A DNA stretch of 64,000 nt from Dehalococcoidia bacterium (GCA_965217625.1 OZ244557.1:1341827-1405826); one strand, 5' to 3'; counted from the stretch's first letter, positions 30,995 to 55,195 are shown. Program-made: numbers and translations. The notes: generated from the letters alone by a model not told the origin.

Positions 30995-31906
30995 ATGACG
31001 GCATCGGGTCCGGCCCCGCGCTCCTCGGCCGTCGCGCGGATTGGCCTGTGGAGCGCGCGACACCGCCGGATCGTGCTTGCCGGCTGGCTGGCCGTCGTTG
31101 CCGTCGCGATCGGCGTTTGCTCCAGCGTCCAGCCGGACACCGACGTCGACGAGGAGACGGCCGGGGGAGGCGACACCGATCGGGCGACGGCGCTGATCGA
31201 GGAGCGCTTTCCGGTCGACGAAGGCGAGGTGGAAGGCACGGCCCAGGAGACCGTCTTCTTCTCCCACCCCGCGCTGCGGGTGACAGACCCCGCATACCGC
31301 CAGGGCGTCGAGGGCCTGATGGACGAGCTCGCCGCGCTGCGCATCGCGGAGCGCGTGACGATCGGCGGCACCGCCGTGACCAACAGCACGCGCATCGTGC
31401 GGGAGACCACCACCCACGACGAGCTCGGACTCGCGCGCGAGGCGTCGCCGTTCGTCGCGGCGAACGCGACCGGCGGGGACGTGACGTTCGCGCGGGTCCA
31501 GATCGACGCGACGGCCGTCGACGGCGTGGACCAGGTCGACAACATCCTCGTCGTCACCGATCTGGTCGCGGAGGTGAACGGGCGGGGTGGCTTCGAGGTC
31601 CTGATCGGCGGCGTGGCGTCGCTCACTCAGCAATTGACCGAGATCGACAACGAGGACCTCGCCCGCGCCAGCCTGATCACCCGGCCGATCACCTTCGCCA
31701 TCCGGATCCTTGCCTTCGGTGCCGTCCTCGCGGCCGGCGTGCCGCTCGCGCTCGCCTTCGGTTCGATCGCGATGGCGATCGCGGTGATCGCGTTGGTCAG
31801 CCAGGTGTTCCCGCAGAGCAGTGTCTTCGAGCAGATGGGGATAGGATGCGCGGTGCGGGCGCGTGGGAAGCCACGCGCGGCGCACGAGAACGGAGGGCCG
31901 CCGTGA
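30995..31906 (+). pseudogene. MMPL/RND-family transporter N-terminal fragment
   Basis: Signal/TM1 is followed by a periplasmic loop and TM2-4 (LITRPITFAIRILAFGAVLAAGVPLALAFGSIAMAIAVIAL). Only ~280 aa are present, and the frame ends where the duplicated segment (31822..) begins. Confidence 0.55.
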
Positions 31907-32680
31907 CCAAGGAACTCATCATCGAGGACGGGCCGATCACGCGGCTCACGATCAATCGGCCGGAACGGCACAACGCGATCAACACGGAGGTCGGCGACGC
32001 GATGATCGATGTCGTGACGCGCGTGGGTCGCGACCCGACTGTCCAGGTGCTGATCCTGGGCGGCACTGGGAAGTCGTTCAGCTCGGGCGACGACAGGACG
32101 GACGAGCGCACCATGTCCGCCCCGCACAGCGCGCCGTTCAATCAGGGACGGTATCCCTACCACCAGCTGCAAACCCTGTTGCGGCGTATCCCGCAACCCG
32201 TGATCGCCGAGGTGCACGGCTACTGCATGGGGTCCGGCTTCGACCTCATGCTCGCCTCCGACTTCGCGATCGCCGACCCCGACTCCCAACTAAGACTGGT
32301 GATCACCGCAACGGCCTTCCTGCCCAAGTACGTGGGGCTGAAGCACGCCTGGCGGCTGATCCTCGACGACGGCTTTACCTCGGCGCAGGAAGCCGCGGAC
32401 CTGGGCCTGATCACGAAAGTCGCGGCGCCGGGCGCGCTCGCGGAAGAGGTCAGCGCGCTGGCGGAGCGCCTCGCCGAGATCGGCCGCACCCGTCACGGCT
32501 TCCTCGGCGTCCTCAAGGAGTCGCTCAACCGCTCCTTCCTTCCCGCGCTGGACGATGACCTGCGCATGCAACTGATCGGCAGCCGCATGAGGGATCTCTA
32601 CCAGCTGCATCCACCCGCGGACGCCTAGGGGCGACGTCCGCGCTGCCGCTGACCGGATCAGTCGTCGTCGACCTCAGGGC
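31822..32680. repeat. ~860-bp segment duplicated in inverted orientation at 54338..55195 (about 99% identical)
   Basis: Direct comparison shows copy A equals the reverse complement of copy B, with 3 aa differences across the 241-aa crotonase. Both flanks diverge sharply at ~31822/55195 and ~32680/54338. Confidence 0.85.
31903..32628 (+). CDS. enoyl-CoA hydratase/isomerase (duplicate copy A)
   Basis: GTG 31903 overlaps the stop of the MMPL fragment. A crotonase fold is present (LTINRPERHNAIN). Confidence 0.85.
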   Translation: MTKELIIEDGPITRLTINRPERHNAINTEVGDAMIDVVTRVGRDPTVQVLILGGTGKSFSSGDDRTDERTMSAPHSAPFNQGRYPYHQLQTLLRRIPQPVIAEVHGYCMGSGFDLMLASDFAIADPDSQLRLVITATAFLPKYVGLKHAWRLILDDGFTSAQEAADLGLITKVAAPGALAEEVSALAERLAEIGRTRHGFLGVLKESLNRSFLPALDDDLRMQLIGSRMRDLYQLHPPADA

Positions 32681-32884
32681 GATGGAGCACGTGATCGTGT
32701 CACCCCACAACTCGGCCGCGTCCCAAGGCAACGAGGGGCGCGCCTTCGCGATATTCACCGCGAACCTCGCCCGCTGGCTGCGCGGCCAGGCCCTGGAGCA
32801 AGAGGTCGGCGAGCGCTGAGCGGTGGGGTGGGCCCCCATCGCGGGGGGCCGGCCGCGGGGCGCGGGGGGTGTCCCCGCAGCCCC

Positions 32885-33682
32885 CTACCTCCCTTGGAAC
32901 TCCCCCACCCGACGCTCGTTCGTCGCCCGCACCCCCTCGCCGAAGTCCTGGGTCCGCCGCAGCCAGTCCTGCGCCACCTGCTCGTGGTCCGTGGCCTCCC
33001 GGATCCGCGCCGCCAGCCCCTGCCGCATCGTCCGCCGGATCGACCGCACCGCCAGCGGCGCCGACGCCGCAATCTCCGCCGCGAACTCCATCGCCCGCGG
33101 GCGCAAGTCGTCCAGCGGGACCAGCTCGTCCACCATCCCCATCGCGTGCGCCTCCTCCCCCTTCACCCGCACCCCCGTGTACCGCATCCGCAACGCGTTC
33201 TGCTGCCCCACGATCGCCGGTAGCGACACCGTCAGCCCAAACCCGTGGTGAAAGCCCAGCCGCGCGAAATTCGCCGCGAAGCGCGCCGCCGGCGCCGCCA
33301 CCCGGAAGTCCGCCGACAGCGCCAGGCCCAGCCCGCCCCCGATCGCCGCCCCCTGCACCGCCGCCACCACCGGCAGCTCGGTGTCGTCCAGGCGCACCGC
33401 CTCGTAGTAGAGGTGGCGGCGGCCCCGCTTCCCGCCCGGCGGCGGCGGCTCGCCCTCCGCCGCCGGCCCGCCCAGCTGCGCCCCCGCGCAGAACGACCGC
33501 CCCTCCGACGCCAGCACGATCACCCGGGTGTCCGTCTCCCGGTCCAGCGCCTCGTAGGCGTCCGCCAGCGGCGCGATCATCTCCAGACTGAAGAAGTTGT
33601 GCGGCGGGCGCTGCACCTCCACCAGCGCGATCGGCCCGTCCAGCTCCCCCCCGATCTCCGGGAACTCTCCGAATGCGGTCAT
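32885..33682 (-). CDS. enoyl-CoA hydratase/isomerase
   Basis: Crotonase motifs are present (VEVQRPPHNFFS, oxyanion-hole GGG region). Confidence 0.85.
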   Translation of the reverse strand: MTAFGEFPEIGGELDGPIALVEVQRPPHNFFSLEMIAPLADAYEALDRETDTRVIVLASEGRSFCAGAQLGGPAAEGEPPPPGGKRGRRHLYYEAVRLDDTELPVVAAVQGAAIGGGLGLALSADFRVAAPAARFAANFARLGFHHGFGLTVSLPAIVGQQNALRMRYTGVRVKGEEAHAMGMVDELVPLDDLRPRAMEFAAEIAASAPLAVRSIRRTMRQGLAARIREATDHEQVAQDWLRRTQDFGEGVRATNERRVGEFQGR

Positions 33683-33796: not shown

Positions 33797-34660
33797 GTGA
33801 GCTACCAACACCTGTCCTTCGACCGTCACGGCCCCGTGGCCGTCGTCACCCTCAACCGCCCCGAGAAGCTCAACGCCCTCAACTTCGATCTCCAAGACGA
33901 GACGCGCGCCGCCTGCGCCGAAGTCGACGCCGACGACGACCTGCGCGTCATGGTCGTCACCGGCGCCGGCCGCGGCTTCTGCTCCGGCTCCGACCAAACC
34001 GCCGGCGGCGCCGCTCAAAAGCGCGACGCGCCCCAGAACGAGCGCTTCGACGAGTTCGCGCGGCTTCGACGGCAAGCCGGCCCGGACGACGTCCCGCCCC
34101 AGAACGAGCGCCTCGACGAGTTCGGCTGGGTCGGCCGCCAGGCCAAGGCCTTCTACGACCTCACCAAGCCCACCATCGCCGCCGTCAACGGCGTCGCCGT
34201 CGGCGCCGGCATGAGCCTCGCCCTCGCCTGCGACATGCGCATCGGCTCGGAGAACGCCCGCTTCAAGACCGTCTTCATCGAGCGCTCCCTCTCGCCCGAC
34301 TCCGGCATGTCCTTCTTCCTCCCCCGCATCGTCGGCTACTCCCGCGCCGCCGACCTCATCTTCACCAGCCGCGCCGTCGACGCCCCAGAGGCCCACGCCA
34401 TCGGCCTGCTCGACCGCCTCGTCGCCGCCGACGCGCTCCTGCCCGCCGCCCTGGAGTTGGCCAACCAGATCGCCGTCTGGCCCCCCGTCGCCATGCGCTC
34501 CGCCAAGCGCGTGCTGCAGAAGAACCTGCAGCTCAACCTCCATGACGCCCTGATCAACGAAACCGCCGGCCTCAACTTCGCCAACCGCGCCCCGCACGAC
34601 GTGAAAGAGTCGCGCGACTCCTTCCTGGAGAAGCGCGCTCCCGAGTTCACCGGCCGCTAG
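33797..34660 (+). CDS. enoyl-CoA hydratase/isomerase with internal 22-aa tandem duplication
   Basis: GTG 33797 follows a gggaggag RBS. Motifs VVTLNRPEKLNAL and FCSGSD are present. The 66-bp in-frame tandem repeat spans 34031..34162. Confidence 0.85.
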   Translation: MSYQHLSFDRHGPVAVVTLNRPEKLNALNFDLQDETRAACAEVDADDDLRVMVVTGAGRGFCSGSDQTAGGAAQKRDAPQNERFDEFARLRRQAGPDDVPPQNERLDEFGWVGRQAKAFYDLTKPTIAAVNGVAVGAGMSLALACDMRIGSENARFKTVFIERSLSPDSGMSFFLPRIVGYSRAADLIFTSRAVDAPEAHAIGLLDRLVAADALLPAALELANQIAVWPPVAMRSAKRVLQKNLQLNLHDALINETAGLNFANRAPHDVKESRDSFLEKRAPEFTGR

Positions 34661-34669
34661 CCGCCCCAC

Positions 34670-37132
34670 TTGGGAGGGTGCATCCCAGCCATGCCCGCCG
34701 CCTTCGACGACCTGCGCGTGCTGGACCTGTCCGACCGCCTCTCGGGGGCGTATAGCGCGCGCCTGTTCGGCGACTTCGGCGCCGATGTGCTGCTCATCGA
34801 GCCGCCGGAGGGGCACGCGTTGCGGCGCGAGCCCCCCTTTGCCGAGGGGGCATCGGGGCCGGAGGCGTCCCTGCTCCACGCCTATGTCAACGCCAACAAA
34901 CGCTCGCTGACGGTGCGCGAACCTCGGCAGATCGCGCAGCACGTCGCCGCCGCCGACCTGATCGTGACGACCGCGGCGCCCCTGCCCGGCGCGCTGCGCG
35001 CCGCGCTCGACGCGAAGCGCCCCGACGCCGTCCATCTGTCGGTGACCCCGTTCGGCCTCGACGGACCGTTGACGGGCGCGGCCGGGAACAACCTCACCGC
35101 CTGCGCCATGAGCGGTTGGGCCGACATCTGCGGCGACGCGGGCGAGCCGCCGCTCCAGCTGCCGCCGCACTCCTCCGACTACATCGCGGGGGTGTCGGCG
35201 TTCGTCGGGGCGGCCGGGGCGCTCCTGCGGCGGCGGGCGTCCGGCAAGGGCGCGCTGGTCGACGCGGGCGAGGCGGAAGCGGCGATCGTCACGACGATCC
35301 CCTGGTCGCTCGCGGCGGTGTACGAGGGGCCCGGGGGCTACGCGCAGGCCGTTCACACCCATCACCGCGACCACGGGTTCTACCGCGCGGCCGACGGGGA
35401 GATCCTGATCGGCCTGGGTCCGGGACCGTTCTGGATCGACGCGATGCACGTGCTCGACCTGCCCGAGCTCGCCGACGACCGCTTCGCCGACCCGCTGGTC
35501 CGCCCCGCGCACGTCGACGAGTTCCGGCCGCGTATCGAGGAGCGCGTCGCGCAGCTCCCCCGGTTCGACGTGTTCGAGACGCTGTCGTCCGTGCGCTCTC
35601 GGTCCGGCGTGGTGGAGACGATGTCGGACCTGTTGGCCGATCGCCAGCTGAGATCGCGCGGGTACTTCGTCGAGACGGAGGTCGCCGGCGGGACGGCGCG
35701 AGTGCCGGGCGCGCCGGCCAAGCTGGGCGCGACCCCGTGGGCGGCGCGACGCGGGGCCCCCCGGCTCAGCGATGCGGCCGCAGCGGCATGGTCGGATCCA
35801 CGGCCGCCGTCGCCGGCCCCTGGCGCCGTCGATGCGGCGCCGGTCGAGGCGCCGCTCTCGGGCGTGCGGGTGCTGACGTTCACGCAGGCGTGGACGGGCC
35901 CGCTCGGCACGGAGCTGCTGGCCCTGCTGGGGGCCGACGTGGTCCAGATCGAGGCGCGATCCCGTCCCGACGTTTGGCGCACCTACGCCGGAACGTCCTT
36001 CGCCAGTGAGTCCGGCGGCTACCGCGCCGACATCCCCGCCGGCATCGCCGACCCCGGCCGCCGCCAGCGCGCTTGGAACACGATGGGCCTCTACAACGGC
36101 ACCAACCTGCACAAGCGCGCCATCACCCTCGACATGCGCGACCCACGCGGAGCGGACCTCTTTTGGCGCCTCGTCCCCCGCTTCGATGTCGTGGCGGAGA
36201 ACTTCCGGCCCGACGTCATGTCCAATTGGGGCGTCACCTTCGAGGCGCTGCGCGCCGCGCGCCCCGACGTGATCTTCGCGTCGCTGTCGGGGTACGGCGC
36301 CACCGGGCCGTACGCGTCGTTCGCGGCCAACGGGGAGTCGATCGAGCCGATGTCCGGGTTTGCGTCGTTGCACGGGTACCTCGGGGGGCCGCCACAAAAT
36401 AGCGGCGGGCTGCTGCCGGACCCCGTCGGCGGGATGTACCTGGCGACCGCGATCCTGGCAGCCCTCCATCACCGTGCGCGCAGCGGCGAGGGCCAGCAGA
36501 TCGACATCTCCATGGTGGAGGCGATGACCGCCCACTTCGGCGACGCGGTGCTGGAGCATGCCCTGAACGGCGTCGTGCGTGGGCCATCGGGAAACCGCCA
36601 CCCGCGCGTGGCGCCGCACGGCGTGTACCCGGCGCGAGACGGCCGCTGGATCGCCATCGCCGCCGAGACCGACGACGCCTGGCGGGCCCTGGCCGGTCAG
36701 CTCGGACGGCCTCAGCTGGCCGGCGACCCGCGCTTCGCCTCGGCCGCCGCCCGCAAGGAGCACGAAGACGAGCTCGATGCGGCCATCGCGATCTGGAGCG
36801 GGGAGCAGGACGCCGACGATGCCGCCGGGGCCCTGCGGGGTCTGGGCTGCGCGGCGGCCCCGGTCGCCCGGTTGGCGGAGGTCGTGGAGTCGCCGCATCC
36901 GCACTTCGTCGAGCGGGGGTTCATGGCGGAGGTCGCGCACCCAGAGGCGGGGAGCCACCCGTTGGCGATCGCCCCGTGGAAGTTCTCGGGCCGCTCCGTG
37001 GCCAACGTGCGCCCCTCGCCCTGCATGGGCGAGCACAGCTTCGAGGTGTTGCACGAGGAGTTTGGGCTGAGCGAGTCGGAGTACAACGCCCTGGTCGAGG
37101 CGGGCGTCACCGGCGACATGCCCCCGGACTAG
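34670..37132 (+). CDS. tandem-fused family III CoA-transferase (two CaiB/BaiF domains)
   Basis: Two successive LRVLDLS / VRVLTFTQAWTGP N-terminal motifs and an 820-aa length show an internal domain duplication. Confidence 0.85.
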   Translation: MGGCIPAMPAAFDDLRVLDLSDRLSGAYSARLFGDFGADVLLIEPPEGHALRREPPFAEGASGPEASLLHAYVNANKRSLTVREPRQIAQHVAAADLIVTTAAPLPGALRAALDAKRPDAVHLSVTPFGLDGPLTGAAGNNLTACAMSGWADICGDAGEPPLQLPPHSSDYIAGVSAFVGAAGALLRRRASGKGALVDAGEAEAAIVTTIPWSLAAVYEGPGGYAQAVHTHHRDHGFYRAADGEILIGLGPGPFWIDAMHVLDLPELADDRFADPLVRPAHVDEFRPRIEERVAQLPRFDVFETLSSVRSRSGVVETMSDLLADRQLRSRGYFVETEVAGGTARVPGAPAKLGATPWAARRGAPRLSDAAAAAWSDPRPPSPAPGAVDAAPVEAPLSGVRVLTFTQAWTGPLGTELLALLGADVVQIEARSRPDVWRTYAGTSFASESGGYRADIPAGIADPGRRQRAWNTMGLYNGTNLHKRAITLDMRDPRGADLFWRLVPRFDVVAENFRPDVMSNWGVTFEALRAARPDVIFASLSGYGATGPYASFAANGESIEPMSGFASLHGYLGGPPQNSGGLLPDPVGGMYLATAILAALHHRARSGEGQQIDISMVEAMTAHFGDAVLEHALNGVVRGPSGNRHPRVAPHGVYPARDGRWIAIAAETDDAWRALAGQLGRPQLAGDPRFASAAARKEHEDELDAAIAIWSGEQDADDAAGALRGLGCAAAPVARLAEVVESPHPHFVERGFMAEVAHPEAGSHPLAIAPWKFSGRSVANVRPSPCMGEHSFEVLHEEFGLSESEYNALVEAGVTGDMPPD

Positions 37133-37399
37133 CCCGCACCCCCCGCGCTCGTGCGCCCCGCGATCCCGGTCCTCCCGAGAGCTGGTCACGAACCCCGACG
37201 CGCGGCGCCGGGAGGGTGAGCATGGGCGCGGCCTTCGGTCCCGCGCTCACCCGACACCCCTCGCGACGCCGCCCGATCGCAAATCGAGCGAGCGACGCGA
37301 GCGCGAGAACACCCAGCGCCGCCGCCAGTGCGAACGTCCACACCGCCGGCCCGTCGCTGCCCAGCCCGCCACCGCCGGTGGCGGGCAGCGCGGTGACGA

Positions 37400-38130
37400 C
37401 GCTGGACGATGCACGGAGAGACCGTGGGATTCCAGGTGGGCGAGGTAGGCCGCCTCGTGGCGGAATCCGCGTTCCTGCAACACCTCCAGGGCCGGGTCCT
37501 GCCAGCTCGGTGCTGGGAGGAGGCCGTGTGCGCGGGCGGGATCGAGACCCGTCAGCTGCCGGCAGCCGAGATGGTTGGCAAGGTCTGTTGCGGAGAGGCG
37601 GATGCGACCGTCGACCAACCGCATGTCGTTCCGTCCTGAATCCCACGGGCTCGCACCGTGGCGAACCGAAGATATCGTCGTGAACGGCACTGCGGGTGGG
37701 TACCACCACATCACGGACGTACGCCAGCGAGGGACGCGCCCAATTGAGTGGGTATCTCGCACTCGGGTGTGAGAGCGCAGCGATGTGGACTGGCCGTCCT
37801 TCGATCTCTGCGGGGACTTGTGTCTCTGTGATCGCCTGCCAGGAATCGAATGATGGCCTGATCCACTTGGCGACGCCCTTGCCCTGCAGCACGAGCACGG
37901 TGGGTTCGAGGATGCGGAGCGTCTCGCGGAAGTGGCGCAGACAGCGCGTACGCATCTCGCTCGTCGAGCGGCCGGTCGTGGTGCCTGGGGGCACGGCGCT
38001 GCAGAGCAAGACAGTGACGAGTGCGAAGGCATCGAACAGGTGAAACGCCCGATCGCCGTCCGCAGCCAACCATTCGCTGGCCGGAGGCCCTGTCAACTCC
38101 AGTCCAAACAGCAGCCGCAGGGCCATCGTC
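37400..38130 (-). pseudogene. degraded fragments: UDG-superfamily remnant (37691..38126) and RecB-like PD-(D/E)XK nuclease N-terminus (~37400..37624)
   Basis: FHLFDAFALV ... CLRHFRETLRILEPTVLVLQGKGVA ... AALSHPSA resembles UDG family 4/5. MRLVDGRIRLSATDLANHLGCRQLTGLD resembles the TM0106-type RecB-like nuclease N-terminus. The two lie in different frames and neither is complete. Confidence 0.3.
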
Positions 38131-38591
38131 GTCCCCCGCATGTGAGGATTCCTGGCTGAGAAGCCTTCGCGAAGGCCGCTCTTGCCATAAACCATCCGTC
38201 GCGATCGACCATGGAGACGTGCGCAGGCGGGTGCCCGTACTCCTGATCGATCACCGCGATTCGTCAGGGTGGACCATCGAGCTGCAGGTCGTCGTGTCGC
38301 CCAACGTGCGGGAGCTGGCCTTCGAAGACTTCCAGGCCCCTCAAGTGCGCGGATGTGTGACACACGTTCTGCTCGGTGCAACAGAACTTGTTTCCGTCGA
38401 GAACCGCCGCGCTCAAGTAGGCGTCGAGCCGCGCACCGCGAGCTTCACTGGCTTCAGGGTCGCTGCTGATCACGGGCGCCCCCTCAGGCTTCCAAGTCTG
38501 TGAGGGATCTACTGCATCGCTTCGGCGGATGCAACCGCTGGTTGTGAGTTGCGCTAACCTCACGACCCGGCGGGATTCGTGGAGCACAAGG

Positions 38592-39515
38592 ATGGGTCGC
38601 TACGACGCGCTCCTCGGCTACCTCGACGCGTCGGAGCGCGACTCCGAAACGATGCGTCTCGACGAGATCGGGGCGCGCCTCGAGAGTCCCCTGCCGGCCA
38701 GCGCGCGAAAGTATCCGGCGTTCTGGAGCTCCGCCAATCACATCGGCCGGCTGCTTCGGTCCCGCGGGTGGGACGCAACGCCTCGTCTCTCGGCGAGAGA
38801 AGTCGTGTTCGTTCGCGAACAACGCGGATCATCCGCTCTCTCGACGGGGTCGGATCCAGACGAATCGTCTGACCTCGTCCTTGTGGGCTGCGGAAAGGGG
38901 AAGCACTCGGGGCGCCACGCTGCGACGGATCGCTACTCTTCCGCGCTCTTCGGTGGGCGACGCGCGGAGGCCGAGGCGTTGGGGGCACCCTGGTTCATTC
39001 TCTCCGCCGAGCATGGGCTCCTCTCCCCGGAGATGAAGATCGACGCGTATGAGCGCTCCCTCGCAGACGCGTCCGCGCAGGAGAGACGTGAGTGGAGTGC
39101 GAGCGTGCTCGACGCGCTCGATCGCGTCGCCGGTCCGCTCGCTGGTCGGAACGTCCAGATCATGGCCGGTGCCGAGTACCGCGACGACGGCCTCGTCGAA
39201 CGGCTGCGCGCGCGAGGGGCCAAGGTGAGCGAGTTGCTGAAGGGCGTGCCCCTCGGCGAGCAGCTTCGGTGGTTCAAGTCGCGGCACGGCGGGCGCACGG
39301 ACACGTCTGCGGAGCCCGTGTCGACTCCAGGGACGCCGCCCGGAGACGTGACGACGATCGTCGAGCAGCTCACGAGGGAGTTTGCGAATGAGGCATGGGA
39401 GCGAGTCGAACGCCGCAAAGCCCCCGCCCTGGATGGGCGGGCATGCCGGAATGCCACGCGGCGGAATCCCTGCGAGCGCGCGGATGCGACGCTGTCACCT
39501 TCCGATACCTGTTGA
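38592..39515 (+). CDS. hypothetical protein (N-terminal small domain + DUF6884-like central region)
   Basis: ATG 38592 has an aagga RBS. Conserved-looking blocks are LVLVGCGKGKH and WFILSAEHGLLSPEMKIDAYERSL. The family assignment is tentative. Confidence 0.45.
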   Translation: MGRYDALLGYLDASERDSETMRLDEIGARLESPLPASARKYPAFWSSANHIGRLLRSRGWDATPRLSAREVVFVREQRGSSALSTGSDPDESSDLVLVGCGKGKHSGRHAATDRYSSALFGGRRAEAEALGAPWFILSAEHGLLSPEMKIDAYERSLADASAQERREWSASVLDALDRVAGPLAGRNVQIMAGAEYRDDGLVERLRARGAKVSELLKGVPLGEQLRWFKSRHGGRTDTSAEPVSTPGTPPGDVTTIVEQLTREFANEAWERVERRKAPALDGRACRNATRRNPCERADATLSPSDTC

Positions 39516-39529
39516 CGCTGGTCGCCGCG

Positions 39530-40207: not shown

Positions 40208-40226
40208 CTCGCGGAGTCCATCGCGC

Positions 40227-40469: not shown

Positions 40470-40515
40470 GCCCGCAGCGTCAGAGCGAAGCTACGACCTG
40501 ACTACAAACAATAGT

Positions 40516-45607: not shown

Positions 45608-45749
45608 CCGCAACCCGCGGGCCGTCAGCCGCCTACGGCCCTCGGATCGAATGGCCGCACAAATCGGAGGCACGGACGTGGGGGCCGTTTTGCGGTGGGG
45701 CTGGGCGACCCTATTCTGCCGCCATGCGGTCTAGTAAGGGGCAGCTTCA

Positions 45750-46364: not shown

Positions 46365-46814
46365 TCGCCGACGCCGAGTTGGGCAACACCACTTGCCTGA
46401 TGGGGCCTGCGGCGGATGGTGCGCGGACCCTCAGCCACCGGCTGCGGCGCTCTGCCCGACGGGGCTCTCCACGTCGTCGTCGGGGTCCATCGTGCCGATC
46501 GAGGCGGCCATCCCGCCAGCGCCGGTCGGCGGCGCGGCCAGTCCAATGTGGGTCAGAGGCGCGTGAGGGCGGCGATGCCCCCGAGAATGATCCCCGACTG
46601 AATCAGGAACGCCAAGTAGATCTTGGCCTCGAGTCGAGAGATCGCCGCGTCAAGGCTCTGCTGCGTCACGAGTGGGTTCACGGCGTCGGTGATCACTTCC
46701 ACCGTCACGTCGGCTTCCGCCTCCGGCCCAGTGCTAGGAGCGCGTCCGACTGCGGTCCGGGGACCGTATGGCTTGATGATAGGGCGATAGGCACGCGGCG
46801 TCTCGCCCGCCCGC

Positions 46815-47540
46815 TCAGGCCAGCAGCTGATCGGCCAGATCGGTGAAGTCCCGCGCGTTGACGTCGAAGTCGGGCTGCGGCGAGAGGTCGCCGTCGTTGC
46901 CGGCGCCGCTCTCACCCGGGCGAGGCACGTAGGCCGAGCGCAGGCCCGCGGCCATCGCGGCGCGCAGGTCGCGGTGGTGGGCGGCGCACATCATCGCCTG
47001 CCTCGGCTCGACGCCCAGCAGCCGCAGGCCGCCCAGATAGGCCTCCCGGTCGGGCTTGTAGTGGCCCAGGAACTCGCAGGAGATGATGCCGTCCCACTCG
47101 ATGCCGTTGTGCTTGGAGCTGTCGACGGCGATGGCCGTGCTCATCACCGTCAGCACGACGACGGTGTAGCGCGCCCGCAGCCGGCGCAGCGCGGCGGCGG
47201 CGTCGGGCCAGGCGGCCAGTTGGTGCCAGACGCCGTTGAGCGCATCCAGGTCCGCCGGCGAGAGCGCAAGCGACGGGTGCTGCTCCGCCAGCTCGTCGAG
47301 CAGCCCGCGGTGGATCTGATCGGCGTTCATCCAGGGCAGGTCGCCGCTCCGCACGCGCGCCAACTCCTGGAACATGCGCCGTCGCCAGGTGTTGGCGAAG
47401 CGCGCGGGGTCGACGCCGGCGCCGCGGGCCGCGGCCAGCCCGGCGACCTCGTCCTTGATGCTGTGATGCCAGTCGAAGACCGTCCCGCCGATGTCCCAGG
47501 TGAGGACGCGGATCTGCCGCAGGTCGATCGGGTCGGGCAT
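46815..47540 (-). CDS. HAD-superfamily hydrolase (haloacid dehalogenase-like)
   Basis: Motif I WDIGGTVFDW follows ATG 47540. The six-frame ORF is extended upstream in the same frame. Confidence 0.8.
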   Translation of the reverse strand: MPDPIDLRQIRVLTWDIGGTVFDWHHSIKDEVAGLAAARGAGVDPARFANTWRRRMFQELARVRSGDLPWMNADQIHRGLLDELAEQHPSLALSPADLDALNGVWHQLAAWPDAAAALRRLRARYTVVVLTVMSTAIAVDSSKHNGIEWDGIISCEFLGHYKPDREAYLGGLRLLGVEPRQAMMCAAHHRDLRAAMAAGLRSAYVPRPGESGAGNDGDLSPQPDFDVNARDFTDLADQLLA

Positions 47541-47559
47541 GCGCTCGTCTCCCTGCCTG

Positions 47560-48009
47560 GCCGCCGTCCCCCGACGGTTCGGCCTTGCCGTAGTCGACGG
47601 TGAGCCAGTGCTCGGGGTGGATGCGCACCAGCACGCTGTCCATCGTGCTGTTCGCGGCCGCCGCGGCGTACTGGTCGCCCTGCTCGCGGCCCAGGTAGCG
47701 GACCGCCATCGGCCGCAGATCCCGATCCACGTCCCGCGCATCGATGGCGACCACCGGTCCCTCGACCGTGACGTACTTGTACGGGCGGGTCTCCGTCTGC
47801 GCGCACAGGCTCACACGCACGCCCGGCGCCAGCAGACGGCCCTTGCGGCTGTCGCGCCCGGTCAGGACCAGAACGTCGCCGCCGGGCTCGTAGGCGTACC
47901 AGATCGGCGCCGCCAGCGGCCCGAGGCCGGGCTGCGGCACGCTGAGGATGCCCACGCGCACCTCGGCCAGGAACGCCTCCCGCTCCTGCTTGGTCATCGC
48001 CGTCGTCAT
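47560..48009 (-). CDS. pyridoxamine 5'-phosphate oxidase-like (PPOX class, probable F420-dependent) protein
   Basis: MTTAMTKQEREAFLAEVRVGILSV ... ends HPEHWLTVDYG. The 3' end is approximate, because the frame stays open by chance into the HAD gene. Confidence 0.65.
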
Positions 48010-48036
48010 CGCCGTGCTCCTCTCCGCGATCGCCCC

Positions 48037-48738
48037 TCAGGGGATGCCGATCATCTCCGTGCTCGTCGGCAGCGCCAGCGACCCGTCGGGGTCGATCCAC
48101 TGCTCGAATCCGTCCGGCCGGGCCTGCTCGCGAAAGCGCGCCCAGCCGGCGGCGTCCGGGAAGTACAACTCCGCCATCCCGGCGTACGGCTCGATCGCCG
48201 GGTTGACGCTCAGGCTGACGACGTAGCCGATCCCGCCCACGCGCAGCATCGTCTCCCGCACGTTGGGCGCGTGCACGTCGAGCCAATGGGCGAACATCGC
48301 CTCGAAGTTCACGCCGTCGCGCGCCTTCACGAGCACCGTCTGCTTGTGGAAGCCCGAGCGCGTGGTGGGATAGGGCGCGTTCAGGGTCAGCGGCTCGGCG
48401 GCGAGTTGCGCGGCGCCGTCGATCACGACGTACTCGGTCGTCGCCCAGGAGGTATGCGGCTCGGCCTTCTGCTGGAACGTGTCCTTCGGCACGGTGCCGA
48501 GGGGCCGCTTCGGGCGCCCCAACGCGAAGTCCCACCAGAGCTGCGCGACCCCGTCCCAGGGATGCCGGCCCGATGCGTCGGCGTCGAACAGCGTGGCGAT
48601 GTAGCGCCAGGCGTGCGCCTTGCCGGCCGCCTTGAGGTCGTGCTGCCCCTCGATCACGCCGGACATGTGATTGCCGAACCAATGCACCACCAGCTCCTCG
48701 CGGGAGGTGGTGGGCTTGCGCTTGATGAGGTAGAGCAT
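48037..48738 (-). CDS. EthD-like / dimeric alpha-beta barrel domain protein
   Basis: MLYLIKRKPTTSREELVVHWFGNHM is an EthD-type N-terminus. A second similar module follows. Confidence 0.55.
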   Translation of the reverse strand: MLYLIKRKPTTSREELVVHWFGNHMSGVIEGQHDLKAAGKAHAWRYIATLFDADASGRHPWDGVAQLWWDFALGRPKRPLGTVPKDTFQQKAEPHTSWATTEYVVIDGAAQLAAEPLTLNAPYPTTRSGFHKQTVLVKARDGVNFEAMFAHWLDVHAPNVRETMLRVGGIGYVVSLSVNPAIEPYAGMAELYFPDAAGWARFREQARPDGFEQWIDPDGSLALPTSTEMIGIP

Positions 48739-48911
48739 CTTCGCGCCGGGAGTGGCGTCGGGCCGGGTGGAGGCAGGGGGCATCGGCATCTCCTTCGCGT
48801 TCCTGCGCAGGCGTCGCGCGGGACACGACCGAGGCTAGCGGGTCTGACGTCGGCGCACGAAGCGCCCTCGGCGGGATAGGCTGGGCGGGCGCAACTTCGG
48901 AGAGGTCCACC

Positions 48912-49907
48912 ATGCCGCAACTCACCAGGAGACGCCTCGTTCTCGGTGGTGGTGTAGCCGCGCTGCTGGCCGCCGGACTGATCGTGCTCGCCGTGTGGTA
49001 CTTCGTCCTGCGCGCCGACGCCCCGCCCCCCGTCGCGCTCGAACAGGCCGTGGCCGCCGCCCAGGCGTCGGACGCCGAGGCCGCCACCGAGCCCGATGCG
49101 GACGCGGCCCCTGCCGAACAGGCCCCCGCCGAGCAGGCCGCTCCCGTGGAGCCCGAGCCGGAGCCCGAGCCGGAGCCCGAGGCCGAGGAACCGGCCGCCG
49201 AACCCGCGACCGCCCAGAGCGACGAAGGCAGCGCCCCCGCGGCGGCGGCAGAAGAAGCAGCAGAAGAAGCTGAAGACGCCGCGGCCGAGACGACGGCCGA
49301 ACCCGAAGCCCCCGCTGACGACGCCCCCGCTGACGAAGCCACCGACGACGCCCCCGCCCCCGCTGCCGACGCCGGCCTCGTCGGACGCTGGGAGGTGCTG
49401 GCGGACGGATCGTCTTTCGCCGGCTACCGCGTCGAGGAGGAACTCGCGCGCATCGGCGCCACGACCGCCGTCGGGCGCTCGACGGTCCTGACGGGGTCGC
49501 TCGTCTTCGACGGCGCCGCGATCACTGAGGTCGTGATCGAAGTCGACCTCACCGCGCTCACCAGCGACGACAGCCGCCGCGACGGCGCCCTGCGCCGGCA
49601 AGCGCTTGAGACGAACACCTACCCCTCGACCACCTTCACGCTCACCGAGCCCATCCCCATCGATGCGGCGCCCGCCGAGGGGGAGACGCTGTCGGTCACG
49701 GCCACGGGCGACCTGACCCTGCACGGCATCACGCGCGAGGTGCAGATCCCGATGGAGGGGCAGCTCGTCGGGGATCGGGTGGCGGTCGTGGGGTCGCTGG
49801 AGATCGTCTTCGCCGACTACGACATGGACACGCCCAGCGCCTTCATCGTGCTGGCGATCGACGACCACGGCATCATGGAGTTCCAGCTCGTCTTCGAGCG
49901 CGGCTAG
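48912..49907 (+). CDS. YceI-family protein with N-terminal TM anchor and acidic Pro/Glu/Ala-rich linker
   Basis: The C-terminal ~170 aa match the YceI lipid/polyisoprenoid-binding barrel (TLHGITREV). The stop codon lies inside the IS left inverted repeat. Confidence 0.85.
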   Translation: MPQLTRRRLVLGGGVAALLAAGLIVLAVWYFVLRADAPPPVALEQAVAAAQASDAEAATEPDADAAPAEQAPAEQAAPVEPEPEPEPEPEAEEPAAEPATAQSDEGSAPAAAAEEAAEEAEDAAAETTAEPEAPADDAPADEATDDAPAPAADAGLVGRWEVLADGSSFAGYRVEEELARIGATTAVGRSTVLTGSLVFDGAAITEVVIEVDLTALTSDDSRRDGALRRQALETNTYPSTTFTLTEPIPIDAAPAEGETLSVTATGDLTLHGITREVQIPMEGQLVGDRVAVVGSLEIVFADYDMDTPSAFIVLAIDDHGIMEFQLVFERG

Positions 49908-51202
49908 CAGGGTGCTGAAGAACGGGCTGCGGGCGACGTTGGCGCCGCCCGGAGGCGGCGCCGAGACATCCGCGCCGCGGTTTCTGGCGCTTCGGGTGCC
50001 CCTTCTCGCCCCGCCAGACGCCTCTCCGGGTACCGGATGGGCGGCTGGGCGCACGCCGCCTACCGAGGCACGGGCTCCAGCCGTGCGATGCGCACGAGGT
50101 TGTATGCCGCGGCGGTGAGCTCCAGCCAAGCGCGGTTGCGCTCGCGTCCGACGTAGCGCAGCTTGCGGCCCCCGCCCACGGTCTTGAGCCAGCCGAAGAC
50201 CTCCTCCACCCGCTTCCGCTGCCGTAGGCTGCGCGCGTAGCCGGGATGCCGCGTCGTGCGCCCGTCGATGGCGCTGCGCCGCCCCCGGTCGTTGCGGGCC
50301 ACGTGCGGCGTCACCCCGCGGGCGCGCACGGCCGCCACGAAGTCGCGGGTGTCGTAGGCCCGGTCCGCCCCCAGCGTGGCGCGCCCGCGCACGCTCCGCG
50401 CCAGCATCGTCAGGGCGGCGTCCCGCTCGCCGGTGCCGTCCGCCGGCGTCAACTCCACGTCCACCACCAGGCCGTGGCGGTTCTCGCTCAGCGCATGGCC
50501 CAGATAGCTGAGCTTCGCGGCCTGGCCCGACCCTTTCGTGTAGAGCTGCGCCTCCGCGTCGGTGCGGGAGACGTGCGTCTCCCGGCGCCGGCGCTGGCCC
50601 CGGAAGTCCACCTCGGCGTTGCGCCCACCCCCCGCGGCCGGCGGCGGCGCCTGCTCGTCCCGCGGGCGGTAGCTCTTGAGCGAGGCCCAGGCCTCCAACA
50701 GCGTCCCGTCCACGCTGAAGTGCTCGGCCGACGTGAGCCGCCGGCGCTGCGCCTCGTCCACGACCTCGGCGAAGAAGGCGCGCGCCACGTCGGCCTCCAG
50801 CAGCCGCGCGCGGTTCTTGGAGAAGGTGGTGGCGTTGAAGGGCGCGTCCTCGACGTTCAGGTCGAGGAACCACTTGAAGAGCAGGTTGTAGCGCAGTTGC
50901 TCGCAGAACTGGCGCTCGCTGCGCACCGAGTAGAGCGCGATCAGCAGGCTCCCCTTGAGCAGGTGCTCGGGCGGGATGGACGGTCGCCCGCGCTGGGCGT
51001 ACATCGCGTCGAAGCGCGGCGACAGCCGCGCCAGACACGCGTCCACCAGCGGCTTGATGCGCCGCAACGGGTGGTCGGCGGGGACGAACGTCTCCGGCGT
51101 CACCGCCAGCATGATCTGGGCCTGTCGCTCGCTGTCACCGCGCATGGGGCACCTCCGTGTCCCCAGGATCGCAGGTCCGGCCTTTTTCAGCACCCTGCTA
51201 GC
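49903..51202. mobile_element. IS5-superfamily insertion sequence (~1.3 kb) with 17-bp terminal inverted repeats GCTAGCAGGGTGCTGAA
   Basis: IRL is at 49903..49919 and IRR at 51186..51202, with further imperfect matching inward. A single DDE transposase lies inside. Confidence 0.8.
50060..51145 (-). CDS. IS5/IS1182-family DDE transposase
   Basis: It has the N-terminal DUF772-like region, FSVDGTLLEAWAS, GADRAYD and a C-terminal E ... K motif. Start is taken at MRGDSER. Confidence 0.85.
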   Translation of the reverse strand: MRGDSERQAQIMLAVTPETFVPADHPLRRIKPLVDACLARLSPRFDAMYAQRGRPSIPPEHLLKGSLLIALYSVRSERQFCEQLRYNLLFKWFLDLNVEDAPFNATTFSKNRARLLEADVARAFFAEVVDEAQRRRLTSAEHFSVDGTLLEAWASLKSYRPRDEQAPPPAAGGGRNAEVDFRGQRRRRETHVSRTDAEAQLYTKGSGQAAKLSYLGHALSENRHGLVVDVELTPADGTGERDAALTMLARSVRGRATLGADRAYDTRDFVAAVRARGVTPHVARNDRGRRSAIDGRTTRHPGYARSLRQRKRVEEVFGWLKTVGGGRKLRYVGRERNRAWLELTAAAYNLVRIARLEPVPR

Positions 51203-51250: not shown

Positions 51251-51326
51251 GGGCCCTTAGCTCAGCTGGCAGAGCAGCGGACTTTTAATCCGAAGGTCCA
51301 GGGTTCGAACCCCTGAGGGCCCACCA
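51251..51326 (+). tRNA. tRNA-Lys: tRNA-Lys (anticodon TTT)
   Basis: A 76-nt cloverleaf. The 7-bp acceptor stem GGGCCCT/AGGGCCC is followed by T8 A9, a GCTCAGCTGGCAGAGC D-arm and anticodon loop CTTTTAA. The TPsiC arm is GGTTCGAACCC and the CCA end is encoded. Confidence 0.9.
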
Positions 51327-51466
51327 CTTCGCTTCTTCATTAGGTCCGCCTCGAATCCGGCTCCATCAGGGGTCTGGAGCATCAGACTGGAACTCCGCTG
51401 CTCCGGTTCTTCGCTTGACTTCACGCCGCCCTAGAGCGTCCATGGACCTGCGAAACGGAGGGTCCC

Positions 51467-52426
51467 ATGGTCGCCGCATCCGCCCGCGAACGGGTCGATC
51501 CCGCCGGCATGGACGACGCCATCGCGGCGTACCTCGCGGCCTGCGAGGTGGAGGGGAAGAGCCCCCGCACGGTCCAGGCCTACTCGGAGACACTCAGCCG
51601 GTTCCGGACGATCGGCGTGGCGGAGGGCCTGCCCGATCGGGTCGCCGCGTTCCGCCCCGCCGACGTCTACCGCTTCATGAAGACGATCACCGATGCGGGC
51701 GTCTCGCTCGGGACCCGGCACCGGCGCTTCCGCGAGACGCGGGCGTTCTTCTCCTGGTGCCTCCGGATGGGCTACTGCGAGCAGCACCCCTTCGCGGGGA
51801 TCCCCAACGTCAGGGTGGAGCAGAAGGTGATTCAGCCGCTCACGGAGGAGGAGATCCGAGCGCTGCTCGATGTCTGCGATCCGGCCGAGGAGTACGGCTG
51901 CCGCAACCGGGCGATCATCCTGCTCTTCCTCGACACCGGCTTGCGCGCGGCGGAGTTGCACCAGCTCACGCTCGCGGATGTGTCCTGGGCGGACCGCCGC
52001 ATCCACATCCGCCACGGCACAGGGCGGAAGCAACGGGTGGTGCCGTTCGGGGAGGGACCCGAGGCCGCGCTGCAGTCGTACATCGATCGCTTCCGCGGGC
52101 AGACCGATGGGCCGCTGTTCCTGACGATCGAGCGGCCCAAGAAGCCGCGCGGGCCGATGAACAAGTACCTCTTGGGCACTCTCTTCGCGCGGCTCGGTGC
52201 CCGCGCCGGCGTGCACGCGAACCCGCACCGCTTCCGCCACACCTTCGCGACCTGGGCGATCGAGAACCACGCCCGGGAGCTCGACGTGCAGTACCTGCTC
52301 GGACACTCCACCTCGGCGATGGTGCGGCGCTACTCGGCCACCTACGACGCGGCGAAGGCGGCAGACGCGCATGCCAGCTTCAGCCCGGCGGCACGGCTCC
52401 TGGCAGCGGGGGAGCCGCTGCCGTGA
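51467..52426 (+). CDS. tyrosine recombinase/integrase (phage integrase family, XerC/D-like)
   Basis: An N-terminal SAM-like domain and a catalytic domain with R ... HRFRHTFAT ... LLGHSTSAMVRRY (R-H-R-Y) are present. It lies 140 bp downstream of the tRNA-Lys. Confidence 0.9.
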   Translation: MVAASARERVDPAGMDDAIAAYLAACEVEGKSPRTVQAYSETLSRFRTIGVAEGLPDRVAAFRPADVYRFMKTITDAGVSLGTRHRRFRETRAFFSWCLRMGYCEQHPFAGIPNVRVEQKVIQPLTEEEIRALLDVCDPAEEYGCRNRAIILLFLDTGLRAAELHQLTLADVSWADRRIHIRHGTGRKQRVVPFGEGPEAALQSYIDRFRGQTDGPLFLTIERPKKPRGPMNKYLLGTLFARLGARAGVHANPHRFRHTFATWAIENHARELDVQYLLGHSTSAMVRRYSATYDAAKAADAHASFSPAARLLAAGEPLP

Positions 52427-52611: not shown

Positions 52612-52889
52612 GCCGCGCGCGTCACTGGTCAGGGGCCGTAGGGGCGTCCCGGCTGCCCACCCGTGCATCGACGCCGATGGGGGACTGAAGGAGACGGGGG
52701 CTTCGGCCGCCTGGGCGGCGCCGTCGGGCGCGGCTGCGGCTCCTCCGGCGGCGACGGCGGCGCCACGCTCTCGGGATGCGAGTCGCGCGTCCCGCCACCG
52801 ACCCTCGCTTGACTTGTCCGCGAAGCAGAGCGTCCATGGACCCACATGGACGCCGACACGCTGACGTTGACCGCGCTCGCCGAGACCTA

Positions 52890-53249
52890 CCTATCCGGGA
52901 CCGGGACGCCGCCTACGGTCGCGACTTCGCGCAGAAGGCGGACAGGCTCGGCATCACGACGATCCTGACGCCAGTCCGGGCACCGCAAGCCAACGCGATC
53001 GCGGAACGCGTCAGCGGGACGATCCGGCGCGAGTGCCTGGAGCATGTGATCGTGCTGAGCGAGCGCCACCTGCGCCGCATCATGCGGGAGTACGTCACGT
53101 ATTACAACGGGGCCCGCCCGCATCAGGCGTTCCGGCTCGACCCACCCGACGGACCGCGGGGCGCCGCGGCGCCAGATGACCGGCACCGGCGAGTGGTTGG
53201 GACGCCCGTCCTCGGTGGCCTGCATCACGTCTATCGCTGGGCGGCTTGA
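52890..53249 (+). pseudogene. integrase-core (rve) transposase C-terminal fragment
   Basis: ILTPVRAPQANAIAERVSGTIRRECLEHVIVLSERHLRRIMREYVTYYNGARPHQAF is the canonical end of the rve domain. No N-terminal DDE residues or start are present. Confidence 0.6.
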
Positions 53250-53671: not shown

Positions 53672-54127
53672 CTATGAGAGGATCCGGGGCGGACGAGGGG
53701 AGTCGGCATGGCCCGGAAGCGGTACAGCGCGGAGGAGATCATCGGCAAACTGCGGGAGGCGGAGGTGGCGCTGGCGCAGGGGGAATCGGTCGCGCAGGTC
53801 GCGCGCCGCCTCGGCGTGGCCGAGCCCCACGGCTTCGTTGAGGCGGCACTCCGAGGTAGCCGGAGCGTGAAGCAGTGCGGCTCCGAGCCGCCGGATGCCG
53901 GGTTGGGTCGTGAGTGCGTCGATGTGCCAGCGGAGGGGCTTGCGGGGCGCGAGGTGGCGCTGCACCCGGCGCGCCAGCCCGGGCTGCGCGCTCCCGACGT
54001 AGAGGTACACGCCCGGCGACAGCAGATGCTCGCCGAGGGCTCCCACCTCGACCGTGGTGCTCCCGGGGACGTGCAGGACGAGCACGTATAGGCCGCTGTC
54101 CGGCAGGGCGCTTCCGTGCGCGGCCAT
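53672..54127 (-). CDS. DUF123 / GIY-YIG-like nuclease family protein
   Basis: GLYVLVLHV ... GVYLYVGSA ... RVQRHL ... WHIDAL matches the DUF123 signature (G.Y.YVGSA ... R..RH ... HWHIDYL). Start is taken at MAAHGS. Confidence 0.55.
   Translation of the reverse strand: MAAHGSALPDSGLYVLVLHVPGSTTVEVGALGEHLLSPGVYLYVGSAQPGLARRVQRHLAPRKPLRWHIDALTTQPGIRRLGAALLHAPATSECRLNEAVGLGHAEAARDLRDRFPLRQRHLRLPQFADDLLRAVPLPGHADSPRPPRILS
53708..53820 (+). pseudogene. IS3-family OrfA (HTH) N-terminal fragment
   Basis: MARKRYSAEEIIGKLREAEVALAQGESVAQVARRLGV matches the IS3 OrfA N-terminus. Homology stops after ~37 codons, and it overlaps the DUF123 gene on the opposite strand. Confidence 0.35.
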
Positions 54128-54337
54128 TGGACCCTCGCACGCTCGCCCGAACGATAGGGGGGCAGGGGGGCCCGGTGCCGGCCGGCCCCGGGGGTGCTGC
54201 CGTCCGCGCCGCCGTGCGCCCTTGGTGTGCCCGCGAGGACCGCCGATTCGCAATCCGTCGCCGGCCGCCGCCTCACCGCGAACCACGTCCGCACCCAGGT
54301 CGGCCAGGAGGCGCCCCGCCAGACCCAGACACTCGTC

Positions 54338-55195
54338 GCTGAGGTCGACGACGACTGATCCGGTCAGCGGCAGCGCGGACGTCGCCCCTAGGCGTCCGCG
54401 GGTGGATGCAGCTGGTAGAGATCCCTCATGCGGCTGCCGATCAGTTGCATGCGCAGGTCATCGTCAAGCGCGGGAAGGAAGGAGCGGTTGAGCGACTCCT
54501 TGAGGACGCCGAGGAAGCCGTGACGGGTGCGGCCGATCTCGGCGAGGCGCTCCGCCAGCGCGCTGACCTCTTCCGCGAGCGCGCCCGGCGCCGCGACTTT
54601 CGTGATCAGGCCCAGGTCCGCGGCGTCCTGCGCCGAGGTAAAGCCGTCGTCGAGGATCAGCCGCCAGGCGTGCTTCAGCCCCACGTACTTGGGCAGGAAG
54701 GCCGTTGCGGTGATCACCAGTCTGAATTGGGAGTCGGGGTCGGCGATCGCGAAGTCGGAGGCGAGCATGAGGTCGAAGCCGGACCCCATGCAGTAGCCGT
54801 GCACCTCGGCGATCACGGGTTGAGGGATACGCCGCAACAGGGTTTGCAGCTGGTGGTAGGGATACCGTCCCTGATTGAACGGCGCGCTGTGCGGGGCGGA
54901 CATGGTGCGCTCGTCCGTCCTGTCGTCGCCCGAACTGAACGACTTCCCCGTGCCGCCCAGGATCAGCACCTGGACAGTCGGGTCGCGACCCACGCGCGTC
55001 ACGACATCGATCATCGCGTCGCCGACCTCCGTGTTGATCGCGTTGTGCCGTTCCGGCCGATTGATCGTGAGCCGCGTGATCGGCCCGTCCTCGATGATGA
55101 GTGCCTTGGTCACGGCGGCCCTCCGGTCTCGTGCGCCGCGCGTGGATGCCCACGCGCCCGCATCGCGAATCCTATCCCCAGCTGCTCGAAGACGA
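54338..55195. repeat. inverted copy B of the ~860-bp duplication (partner 31822..32680)
   Basis: See copy A. The reverse complement aligns base for base with a few mismatches. Confidence 0.85.
54388..55113 (-). CDS. enoyl-CoA hydratase/isomerase (duplicate copy B)
   Basis: GTG start at 55113. It differs from copy A by 3 aa (E4A, L to F, E to D). The six-frame ORF to 55470 is an over-extension. Confidence 0.85.
   Translation of the reverse strand: MTKALIIEDGPITRLTINRPERHNAINTEVGDAMIDVVTRVGRDPTVQVLILGGTGKSFSSGDDRTDERTMSAPHSAPFNQGRYPYHQLQTLLRRIPQPVIAEVHGYCMGSGFDLMLASDFAIADPDSQFRLVITATAFLPKYVGLKHAWRLILDDGFTSAQDAADLGLITKVAAPGALAEEVSALAERLAEIGRTRHGFLGVLKESLNRSFLPALDDDLRMQLIGSRMRDLYQLHPPADA

Follow-up and report, generated by a model that had tools for sequence, protein, structure and literature searches.

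An uncultured Dehalococcoidia bacterium carries two near-identical crotonase genes in opposite orientations. Does recombination between them invert the intervening DNA, and how old is the second gene? The question arose for a stretch of 64,000 nucleotides (GCA_965217625.1 OZ244557.1:1341827-1405826; 71% GC; hereafter the window), in which a model given the sequence alone (the original prediction) had noticed an inverted duplication of a crotonase gene bracketing a potentially invertible 22-kb segment. Inversion of the segment between the two copies was strongly supported by comparison with related genomes, in which both orientations were found. The best explanation, regarded as very probable, is that the inverted duplicate crotonase genes convert each other and invert the segment by homologous recombination.

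Base-by-base local alignment of the two segments with their flanks defined two arms of 855 nt with 14 mismatches and zero gaps, at positions within 1 to 3 nt of those predicted (Table 1). The predicted near-identity held, with a true figure of 98.4% in place of about 99%. Half of the mismatches (7 of 14) were within the first 91 nt, comprising the 5' flank and first codons, and the longest perfect run shared by the arms was 158 nt. In a repeat search of the whole window the pair was the sole long inverted repeat, far above chance. Reading frames were picked by third-position GC content (GC3 frame plot), and each arm carried a complete 241-codon gene preceded by 80 nt and followed by 49 nt of repeated flank, in agreement with the approximately 80 and 50 bp predicted. 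The product matched Pfam ECH_1 with 109.4 bits (cut-off 27), residues 12-216 aligning to profile positions 6-213 of 251, and the arm genes are predicted to be members of the crotonase/enoyl-CoA hydratase superfamily.

Close relatives of the crotonase in a scan of species-representative genomes were all from metagenome-assembled genomes (MAGs) of Dehalococcoidia/Chloroflexota, the nearest having 98% (locus L001), 96% (L002) and 95% (L003) amino acid identity. An actinobacterial origin of the window was rejected on these grounds. Variants obtained by protein search and cluster listing were traced to their contigs, and gave loci L038-L067 from at least 14 ENA/Logan samples, mostly 98-99.5% identical to the window in nucleotide sequence. 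All comparison data were MAG or metagenome contigs. The flanks were labelled X and M to the left of copy A, R to the right of copy A, Y' on the inner side of copy B and P on the outer side of copy B, and the crotonase repeat is written C. Junctions were typed with 500-bp probes from the four flanks of the window on 30 related loci (probe identity 97-100%).

All four flank combinations were found in the relatives, and each flank started immediately, with the first base outside the repeat. The XM-C-R junction of window copy A was also found in L038, L046, L050, L059 and L066, and the XM-C-Y' junction was found in L040, L041, L042, L044, L045, L048, L051, L061, L063 and L064. The P-C-R junction was found in L039, L043 and L052 and, with P and C separated by 609 bp of M, in L001, L057, L060, L062 and L067. 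The P-C-Y' junction of window copy B was also found in L049 and L054 and, with the M piece, in L047, L056 and L058.

Both copies were present around the segment in six long contigs, of which three had the orientation of the window (the window itself, ERZ25073994 contig_13 of 881 kb, and ERZ21829562 ctg258033l of 2.90 Mb) and three had the exactly inverted orientation (ERZ26694425 contig_1 of 2.92 Mb, ERZ28763702 chromosome_1 of 2.84 Mb, and ERZ28763718 ctg123708 of 2.91 Mb). By megablast of the whole window, the interior of the segment was collinear and merely reversed in the inverted contigs. Gaps between paired loci (1872, 1961, 1663 and 1663 bp) matched the corresponding window distances (1873, 1962, 1664 and 1664) within 1 bp, and the segment was therefore collinear and simply flipped. 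The predicted potential for inversion was thus borne out by relatives in both orientations, with breakpoints inside the repeat.

Orientation did not track relatedness, and near-clonal genomes had opposite orientations. The window-like contig_13 differed from the inverted ctg123708 at 3 of 3801 positions in R, none of 3130 in Y' and 1 of 4810 in X (4 in 11.7 kb), and was farther from the second window-like genome in that tight clade (7 of 3801 and 12 of 6000 positions). In sample ERZ25073994, a 24.9-kb contig with the XM-C-Y' junction (L044) differed from contig_13 by 1 mismatch in 10,806 nt of the Y' flank and 2 in 8.3 kb of the XM flank; the far-left flank of L044 was unlike that of contig_13. 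Both junction types were also found together in samples ERZ25071132 (R joined to P and to XM, 99.8% identity), ERZ25069191 (98.6%) and ERZ21829562 (99.83%). The inversion is recent and probably recurrent, and it segregates in natural populations with the two orientations at about equal frequency.

The two copies differed less within genomes than between them. In six other genomes, the copies of a pair differed by 0, 1, 0, 0, 3 and 1 nt; between genomes, copies in the same context differed by about 8 nt on average (range 0-14). Smaller differences within genomes are what repeated conversion of the copies by each other would produce, a pattern of concerted evolution by gene conversion. The window pair was an outlier, with four private variants in copy A and three in copy B. 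In four related genomes the repeat was 1,464 nt long and 99.7-100% identical, since 609 bp of M (window 31214-31822) were also present on the P side; relative to these genomes, a 682-bp stretch was absent from the P side of the window. Alleles inside the arms that track flank type were sought as a map of crossover points and gave no signal, having been erased by homogenisation.

Near-identity of the copies is accordingly attributed to conversion and not to a recent origin. The original prediction had taken the duplication to be recent; the crotonase pair was present in every examined genome of the clade of at least 98% identity, and a single copy, the ancestral state sought by synteny, was found in the 96% sister species (L002, L003). 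The duplication is thus as old as the species-level clade. The single copy of the sister species had 82 bp of M at its 5' side and, at its 3' side, a flank of the Y' type leading to tRNA-Lys and YceI, and for this reason XM-C-Y' is considered the ancestral arrangement. About 100 bp of the Y'-type 3' flank were conserved beside orthologues of 70-91% identity (L004-L018). In L002 the gene for the solute-binding protein (SBP) abutted the ECH2-CoA-transferase genes with the crotonase absent, as an empty P|R site. The copy beside the ABC-transporter SBP gene (P side) is thus probably the derived one, and would have come with the DUF3179 fragment and the 265-aa ECH gene (ECH265). On this polarity, the window would carry recombinant junctions at both copies (XM-C-R and P-C-Y'). 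Truncation of the MMPL gene by copy A, as first supposed, is likewise not supported: the junction of M with the crotonase is older, given the 82 bp of it beside the single copy of the sister species. A full-length MMPL gene located after tRNA-Lys in contig_8 (described below) was considered as the source of the 5' part represented by the fragment and was rejected, with 27% identity.

The proposed history starts in an ancestor of this Dehalococcoidia species, where the crotonase with short flanks would have undergone an inverted segmental duplication. The older copy would have remained between the MMPL fragment and the tRNA-Lys side (XM-C-Y'), and the derived copy would have been inserted between the SBP gene and the ECH2/CoA-transferase genes (P-C-R). 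Homologous recombination between the copies would have continued since then, non-reciprocal exchange maintaining near-identity and reciprocal exchange inverting the 21.7 kb between them. Homogenisation of the whole arm argues for general homologous recombination, presumably by a RecA-type mechanism.

In both states each outer flank kept an intact crotonase with the same 80-nt leader, and the changes brought by inversion were confined to the orientation of the 22 kb and to what lay downstream of each copy (a convergent ECH gene or DUF123). Because each outer flank always keeps its intact gene with the same upstream region, the inversion appears to be a structural polymorphism and not a regulatory switch, and probably has no phenotype. 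A scan limited to sigma-70-like consensus promoters and intrinsic terminators found none at either arm end, which is weak evidence in this phylum. In every relative the DUF123 gene was on the ancestral Y' side, at a distance of 211 nt from the end of the repeat. DUF123 belongs to the GIY-YIG nuclease clan, and its product, if a nuclease, could stimulate breaks and recombination beside the repeat.

Several points weigh against arm-to-arm homologous recombination as an ongoing process and as a full account of the locus. The arms of the window were the most diverged pair seen (14 differences and no longer perfect run than 158 nt), and the genome of the window itself may flip rarely. Junction types that co-occur in a sample could reflect co-existing strains in place of switching inside a single clonal population, and chimeric paths through repeats can arise in metagenome assembly. 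Other rearrangements were present at the locus (the different topology of contig_8, variable outer flanks and movement of insertion sequences), and inversion between the arms is therefore not the only process shaping it. A Phage_integrase-family gene inside the segment was conserved in all relatives.

A broader reading, which would complement homologous recombination between the arms, concerns a block of 37.2 kb (24150-61325) around both of them. In this tentative and rather improbable reading, the whole block is a circularisable module linked to tRNA-Lys and the integrase, the arms divide it into arcs of 22 kb and 15 kb that flip-flop, and the window holds one integrated, opened form. Homology of the window to most relatives had its left limit at 24150 and its right limit at 61325, a point at which a DinB_2-like gene was cut, and two assemblies joined these points through about 0.8-1.0 kb containing the rest of DinB_2 and MgtC. 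A contig flagged circular by its suffix (ctg815224_14x_c; 36,941 bp) corresponded to window 24150-61325 with its ends joined and the 22-kb arc in the opposite orientation; its closure was arithmetically consistent (2153 and 2169 bp), with identical overlaps (L048/L052).

The 1.14-Mb contig_8 of ERZ26166799 (L049/L050/L068) had another topology, in which the crotonase copies diverged around a 14.6-kb arc from X to P. Its order was ADH, a first copy of the stretch from FA_desaturase to YceI and tRNA-Lys, integrase, rve_3, DUF123, reversed crotonase, P, X-M and forward crotonase, followed by R, methylase, MR_MLE, PD40, a second copy of the FA_desaturase to tRNA-Lys stretch and a full-length MMPL gene. 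The block was thus bracketed by direct repeats of about 5.7 kb that shared only about 92% identity. The integrase stood at one border and the full-length MMPL gene at the other, the tRNAs were 37,874 bp apart, and at both borders the homology of the bracketing repeats stopped no more than 2 bp from the tRNA-Lys 3' end. The layout looks as though the integrase had inserted a 37-kb circle at tRNA-Lys. The tRNA-Lys of the sister species was followed by about 70 bp, including the first approximately 20 nt of the MMPL open reading frame (ORF) of contig_8, and then by the crotonase, which suggests an insertion hot spot there too.

Four chromosomes with an enclosed 22-kb arc had direct repeats of 0.6-1.65 kb and 99% identity outside a block of about 40 kb (L042/L057, L061/L060, L059/L058, L056/L066). 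The repeats were local host genes (an LplA-NUDIX-PIG-L fragment, or a 264-aa methylase with a 113-aa gene), and look like junctions of a Campbell-type insertion or a tandem duplication. An outer inverted repeat, proposed from NUDIX/LplA on both sides in L058/L059, was rejected, being a direct repeat once the orientation of the locus was considered. The left outer flank had at least six variants among strains. Both topologies showed flipping, contig_8 having junctions of the window type and the circular contig those of the inverted type.

Against a mobile block stand its gene content and its borders. No replication, partition or transfer genes were recognised in it except the ParB-like methylase; besides tRNA-Arg and tRNA-Lys it carried ordinary genes of catabolism and transport, collinear with the chromosome of the sister species, and its ends were imprecise across genomes (24150, 24188, 24272 and 25542). 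The whole-window repeat search found no flanking direct repeat, and the window had a single tRNA-Lys, with no second tRNA-Lys 3' end (attR) at up to 3 mismatches. The circular call was possibly a graph artefact of a strain mixture. Of each unusual kind, one contig only was seen. The simplest unifying idea would be that the block circularises and re-enters by site-specific or Campbell-type recombination. The full cycle, in which the 37-kb module leaves the chromosome as a circle, re-enters at tRNA-Lys through the integrase or elsewhere by Campbell-type recombination, and flip-flops between two isomers, is judged unlikely. If true, it would be a self-rearranging mobile chromosomal cassette in uncultured Dehalococcoidia; the block is the lead most worth following, and more interesting if confirmed.

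The conserved integrase, together with flipping that looked frequent relative to point divergence, could also point to site-specific inversion, with the tyrosine recombinase acting on short sites in the arms as in classic invertons. This is highly improbable, since the arms were whole genes of 855-1,464 nt and not sites of tens of bp, and the copies were homogenised over their full length, as expected from conversion, a hallmark of homologous recombination. Neither a promoter switch nor a gene-fragment switch was evident. The integrase lay right after the tRNA-Lys 3' end, the usual layout of an integration module, and the contig_8 repeat homology ended at that same point; a role in integration is the better explanation for it.

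Misjoins through a collapsed repeat, by which the second copy or the alternative orientations would be assembly artefacts, have the origin of the data in their favour: mixtures of strains were evident, and one contig was flagged circular. They are hardly credible given that the window arms differed at 14 positions, with private variants in each, and that every junction type recurred at the identical base across many independent samples and assemblers, including the XM-C-R and P-C-Y' junctions of the window. Repeats of 855-1,464 nt are also shorter than typical HiFi or Oxford Nanopore Technologies (ONT) reads, and several megabase contigs carried either orientation with otherwise identical content. 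A composite transposon or segment bounded by insertion sequences, in line with one of the two modes of duplication first proposed (transposon- or recombination-mediated), was rejected because the arms were without any defining transposon structure and encoded only the crotonase, not a transposase with terminal repeats, the insertion sequence and the rve_3 remnant being internal and in single copy.

Table 1. Coordinates of the inverted-repeat arms, the segment between them and neighbouring features of the window.
Feature	Position	Strand	Description	Basis
Arm A	31823-32677	+	855 nt: crotonase gene, 80 nt upstream and 49 nt downstream	Repeat search, local alignment
Arm B	54339-55193	-	855 nt, 98.4% identical to arm A	Repeat search, local alignment
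Crotonase copy A	31903-32628	+	241 aa, complete ORF	GC3 frame plot, Pfam ECH_1 E=2.5e-31
Crotonase copy B	54388-55113	-	241 aa, complete ORF; 3 residues differ from copy A	Pfam ECH_1
Invertible segment (S1)	32678-54338		21,661 nt between the arms	
Peripla_BP_6 gene (X)	29958-30953	+	Left outer flank of copy A	Pfam
MMPL N-terminal fragment (M)	30995-31906	+	MMPL profile positions 11-193 of 333; ORF enters arm A	Pfam
Second ECH gene (ECH265)	32885-33682	-	265 aa, convergent with copy A; start of flank R	
ECH2 gene	about 33797-34660	+	287 aa, flank R	Pfam, L038 gene calls mapped
Two-domain (double) CoA-transferase III gene	34670-37132	+	Flank R	Pfam
Mobile-element-like stretch	37164-43453		Unknowns, DUF6884/DUF7662, ParB-like and N6/N4 DNA methylase	Pfam, PHROGs
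Insertion sequence, 1.3 kb	49903-51202	-	DDE_Tnp_1/DUF772 transposase, 20-bp terminal inverted repeats	
tRNA-Lys (UUU)	51251-51326	+		tRNA search
Tyrosine integrase	51467-52426	+	Adjoins tRNA-Lys 3' end	Pfam, PHROGs
rve_3 transposase remnant	52776-53249	+		Pfam, PHROGs
DUF123 gene	53672-54127	-	First gene of flank Y', beside copy B	Pfam
Outer flank P of copy B	55194-60624	-	Outside segment S1	
DUF3179 C-terminal fragment	55259-55441	+	Within flank P	
SBP_bac_5 gene	55523-58123	-	Within flank P	Pfam
Two ABC permease genes	58622-60624	-	Within flank P	Pfam
Block	24150-61325		37.2 kb; matches the 36.9-kb contig flagged circular and the 37.9-kb contig_8 unit	

Genes were annotated with Pfam, PHROGs and a tRNA search, the gene calls of flank R being partly mapped from L038 onto the window (Table 1). 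The stop of the MMPL fragment overlapped the start of crotonase copy A. Pfam and the tRNA search confirmed the CoA-transferase, tRNA-Lys and integrase that had been placed inside the segment. The carboxylase also placed there was found outside it, the only one being a biotin carboxylase/carboxyltransferase fusion at 20510-23875. The supposed prophage remnant consisted of the ParB-like/DNA-methylase gene, the DUF6884 gene and unknowns, in which no phage structural genes were found with Pfam and PHROGs. Copy B had been described as lying among IS3/rve transposase remnants, and of these the rve_3 remnant was found near it.

The mobile-element-like stretch was missing from the sister species. Its ParB-like/N6_N4 DNA methylase, a single 416-aa gene in relatives, was frameshifted in the window (41822-43072) into ORFs of 277 and 125 aa, and its DUF7662/DUF6884 gene, of 538-556 aa in relatives, was split (38529-40207); these could be either pseudogenes or sequencing frameshifts. 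A 277-aa protein (P0125) was 100% identical to window 41822-42655; exact-sequence look-ups of P0125, of crotonases A and B (with V or M as start), of MR_MLE_N and of the acetyltransferase gave no hits. The genes following the methylase stretch were, in order, a truncated MR_MLE, PD40/nitroreductase, HAD, EthD and YceI. At 45624-46803, where relatives had a 421-aa FA_desaturase gene, the window had unrelated sequence with a 204-aa ORF (45750-46364) without a Pfam match. The HAD, EthD and YceI stretch (46804-49908) was just 86-93% identical to relatives, the adjoining DNA being 98-99.5% identical, and contig_8 held two differing alleles of it; the divergence suggests allele replacement through recombination with diverged lineages.

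The insertion sequence between YceI and tRNA-Lys was found only in the window, its site being empty in relatives. Related or 97%-identical copies were found elsewhere, in the DUF6884 region (L039), directly after the crotonase stop (L055, L062) and near an acetyltransferase (L042, L061), and by its distribution this type of insertion sequence appears to be active in the population. A 38-nt direct repeat (51411-51448 and 52805-52842; 79% identical), with conserved ends TCGCTTGACTT...AGAGCGTCCATGGACC, preceded the integrase and the rve_3 remnant. Possible readings of it are a promoter or 5' region common to the two, or the borders of a small cassette. A fifth junction type was found in L053 (ERZ25069191 ctg439170_3x), in which P-C led into 71 nt of Y' before giving way to unrelated DNA with a GmrSD_N gene; L053 was also the only fetched locus sharing window sequence past 61325 (to 61711). 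Cumulative GC skew peaked at approximately 32 kb near arm A and had its minimum at approximately 53 kb near arm B, as if the segment were the wrong way round. It is treated as weak and was not used as a clue to the ancestral orientation, the drop coming mostly from 33-35 kb.

In flank P, the SBP_bac_5 gene contained 82% GC low-complexity sequence of GCC/GCG-type codons (57160-57700), giving a long Ala-rich N-terminal region. SBP length was 541-866 aa among strains, and some relatives had two tandem SBP genes with DUF3179 genes between them; window 5921-6871 was 97% identical to a DUF3179/redoxin gene located between SBP genes in relatives. Genes for ECH, CoA-transferase III, SBP/permease and DUF3179 proteins were abundant in the genome as paralogous sets (window 5921-6871, 3556-5937, 62212-63330 and 63397-63993; L004-L018). 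In distant Dehalococcoidia the orthologous crotonase was usually directly 3' of a two-domain CoA-transferase III gene (L004-L018).

Literature searches found no prior account of this locus, nor of inversions of this kind in these Dehalococcoidia. A well-known mechanism is here documented in nature: a clean natural inversion polymorphism from duplicated genes, in an uncultured high-GC Dehalococcoidia and from public long-read assemblies only, in which such repeats are shown as live recombination substrates in wild populations. MAG contigs at this locus may legitimately differ in structure, and a difference is not automatically a misassembly. As the mechanism is textbook and no phenotype switch was evident, the main value lies in a documented case and a marker locus for strain-level structural heterogeneity.

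The closest parallel is that of tufA and tufB in Salmonella enterica, inverted genes of 1,185 nt with 12 differing sites, between which conversion is recA-dependent and at most 50% of recombination events lead to inversion (PMC5485169, PMC6735719). In both systems near-identical inverse protein-coding genes undergo gene conversion, and reciprocal exchange inverts the DNA between them (PMC5485169, PMC6735719). The interval is 762 kb in Salmonella and 22 kb here, and the genes encode an essential translation factor there and a dispensable-looking catabolic crotonase here. One orientation is strongly favoured in Salmonella, whereas frequencies were comparable in the wild populations studied here, and recA dependence, known there, is presumed here from the tuf precedent.

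Inversions between inverted rrn operons, insertion sequence copies or prophages likewise involve recombination between long inverted repeats and give orientation polymorphism among bacterial strains (PMC9584773), with an example in Lactobacillus crispatus (PMC12199158). The arms described here are neither mobile elements nor rRNA operons, and the inversion is small and local, symmetry about origin and terminus not being established. Invertons (Hin, Gin, FimB/E and Bacteroides promoter invertons) resemble the locus in that populations contain both orientations of a segment, near which a recombinase gene lies. They differ in their repeats of tens of bp, dedicated invertase and switching of a promoter or coding end, whereas the arms here are whole genes of 855-1,464 nt homogenised lengthwise, with no switchable promoter or gene apparent. 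If the 36.9-kb circle is real, the locus would also resemble the yeast 2-micron plasmid and plastid genomes, with two inverted arms and two unique arcs in both relative orientations. The 2-micron plasmid has a dedicated site-specific recombinase, FLP; here there was no evidence of a dedicated flipase, and circularity came from one metagenomic contig.

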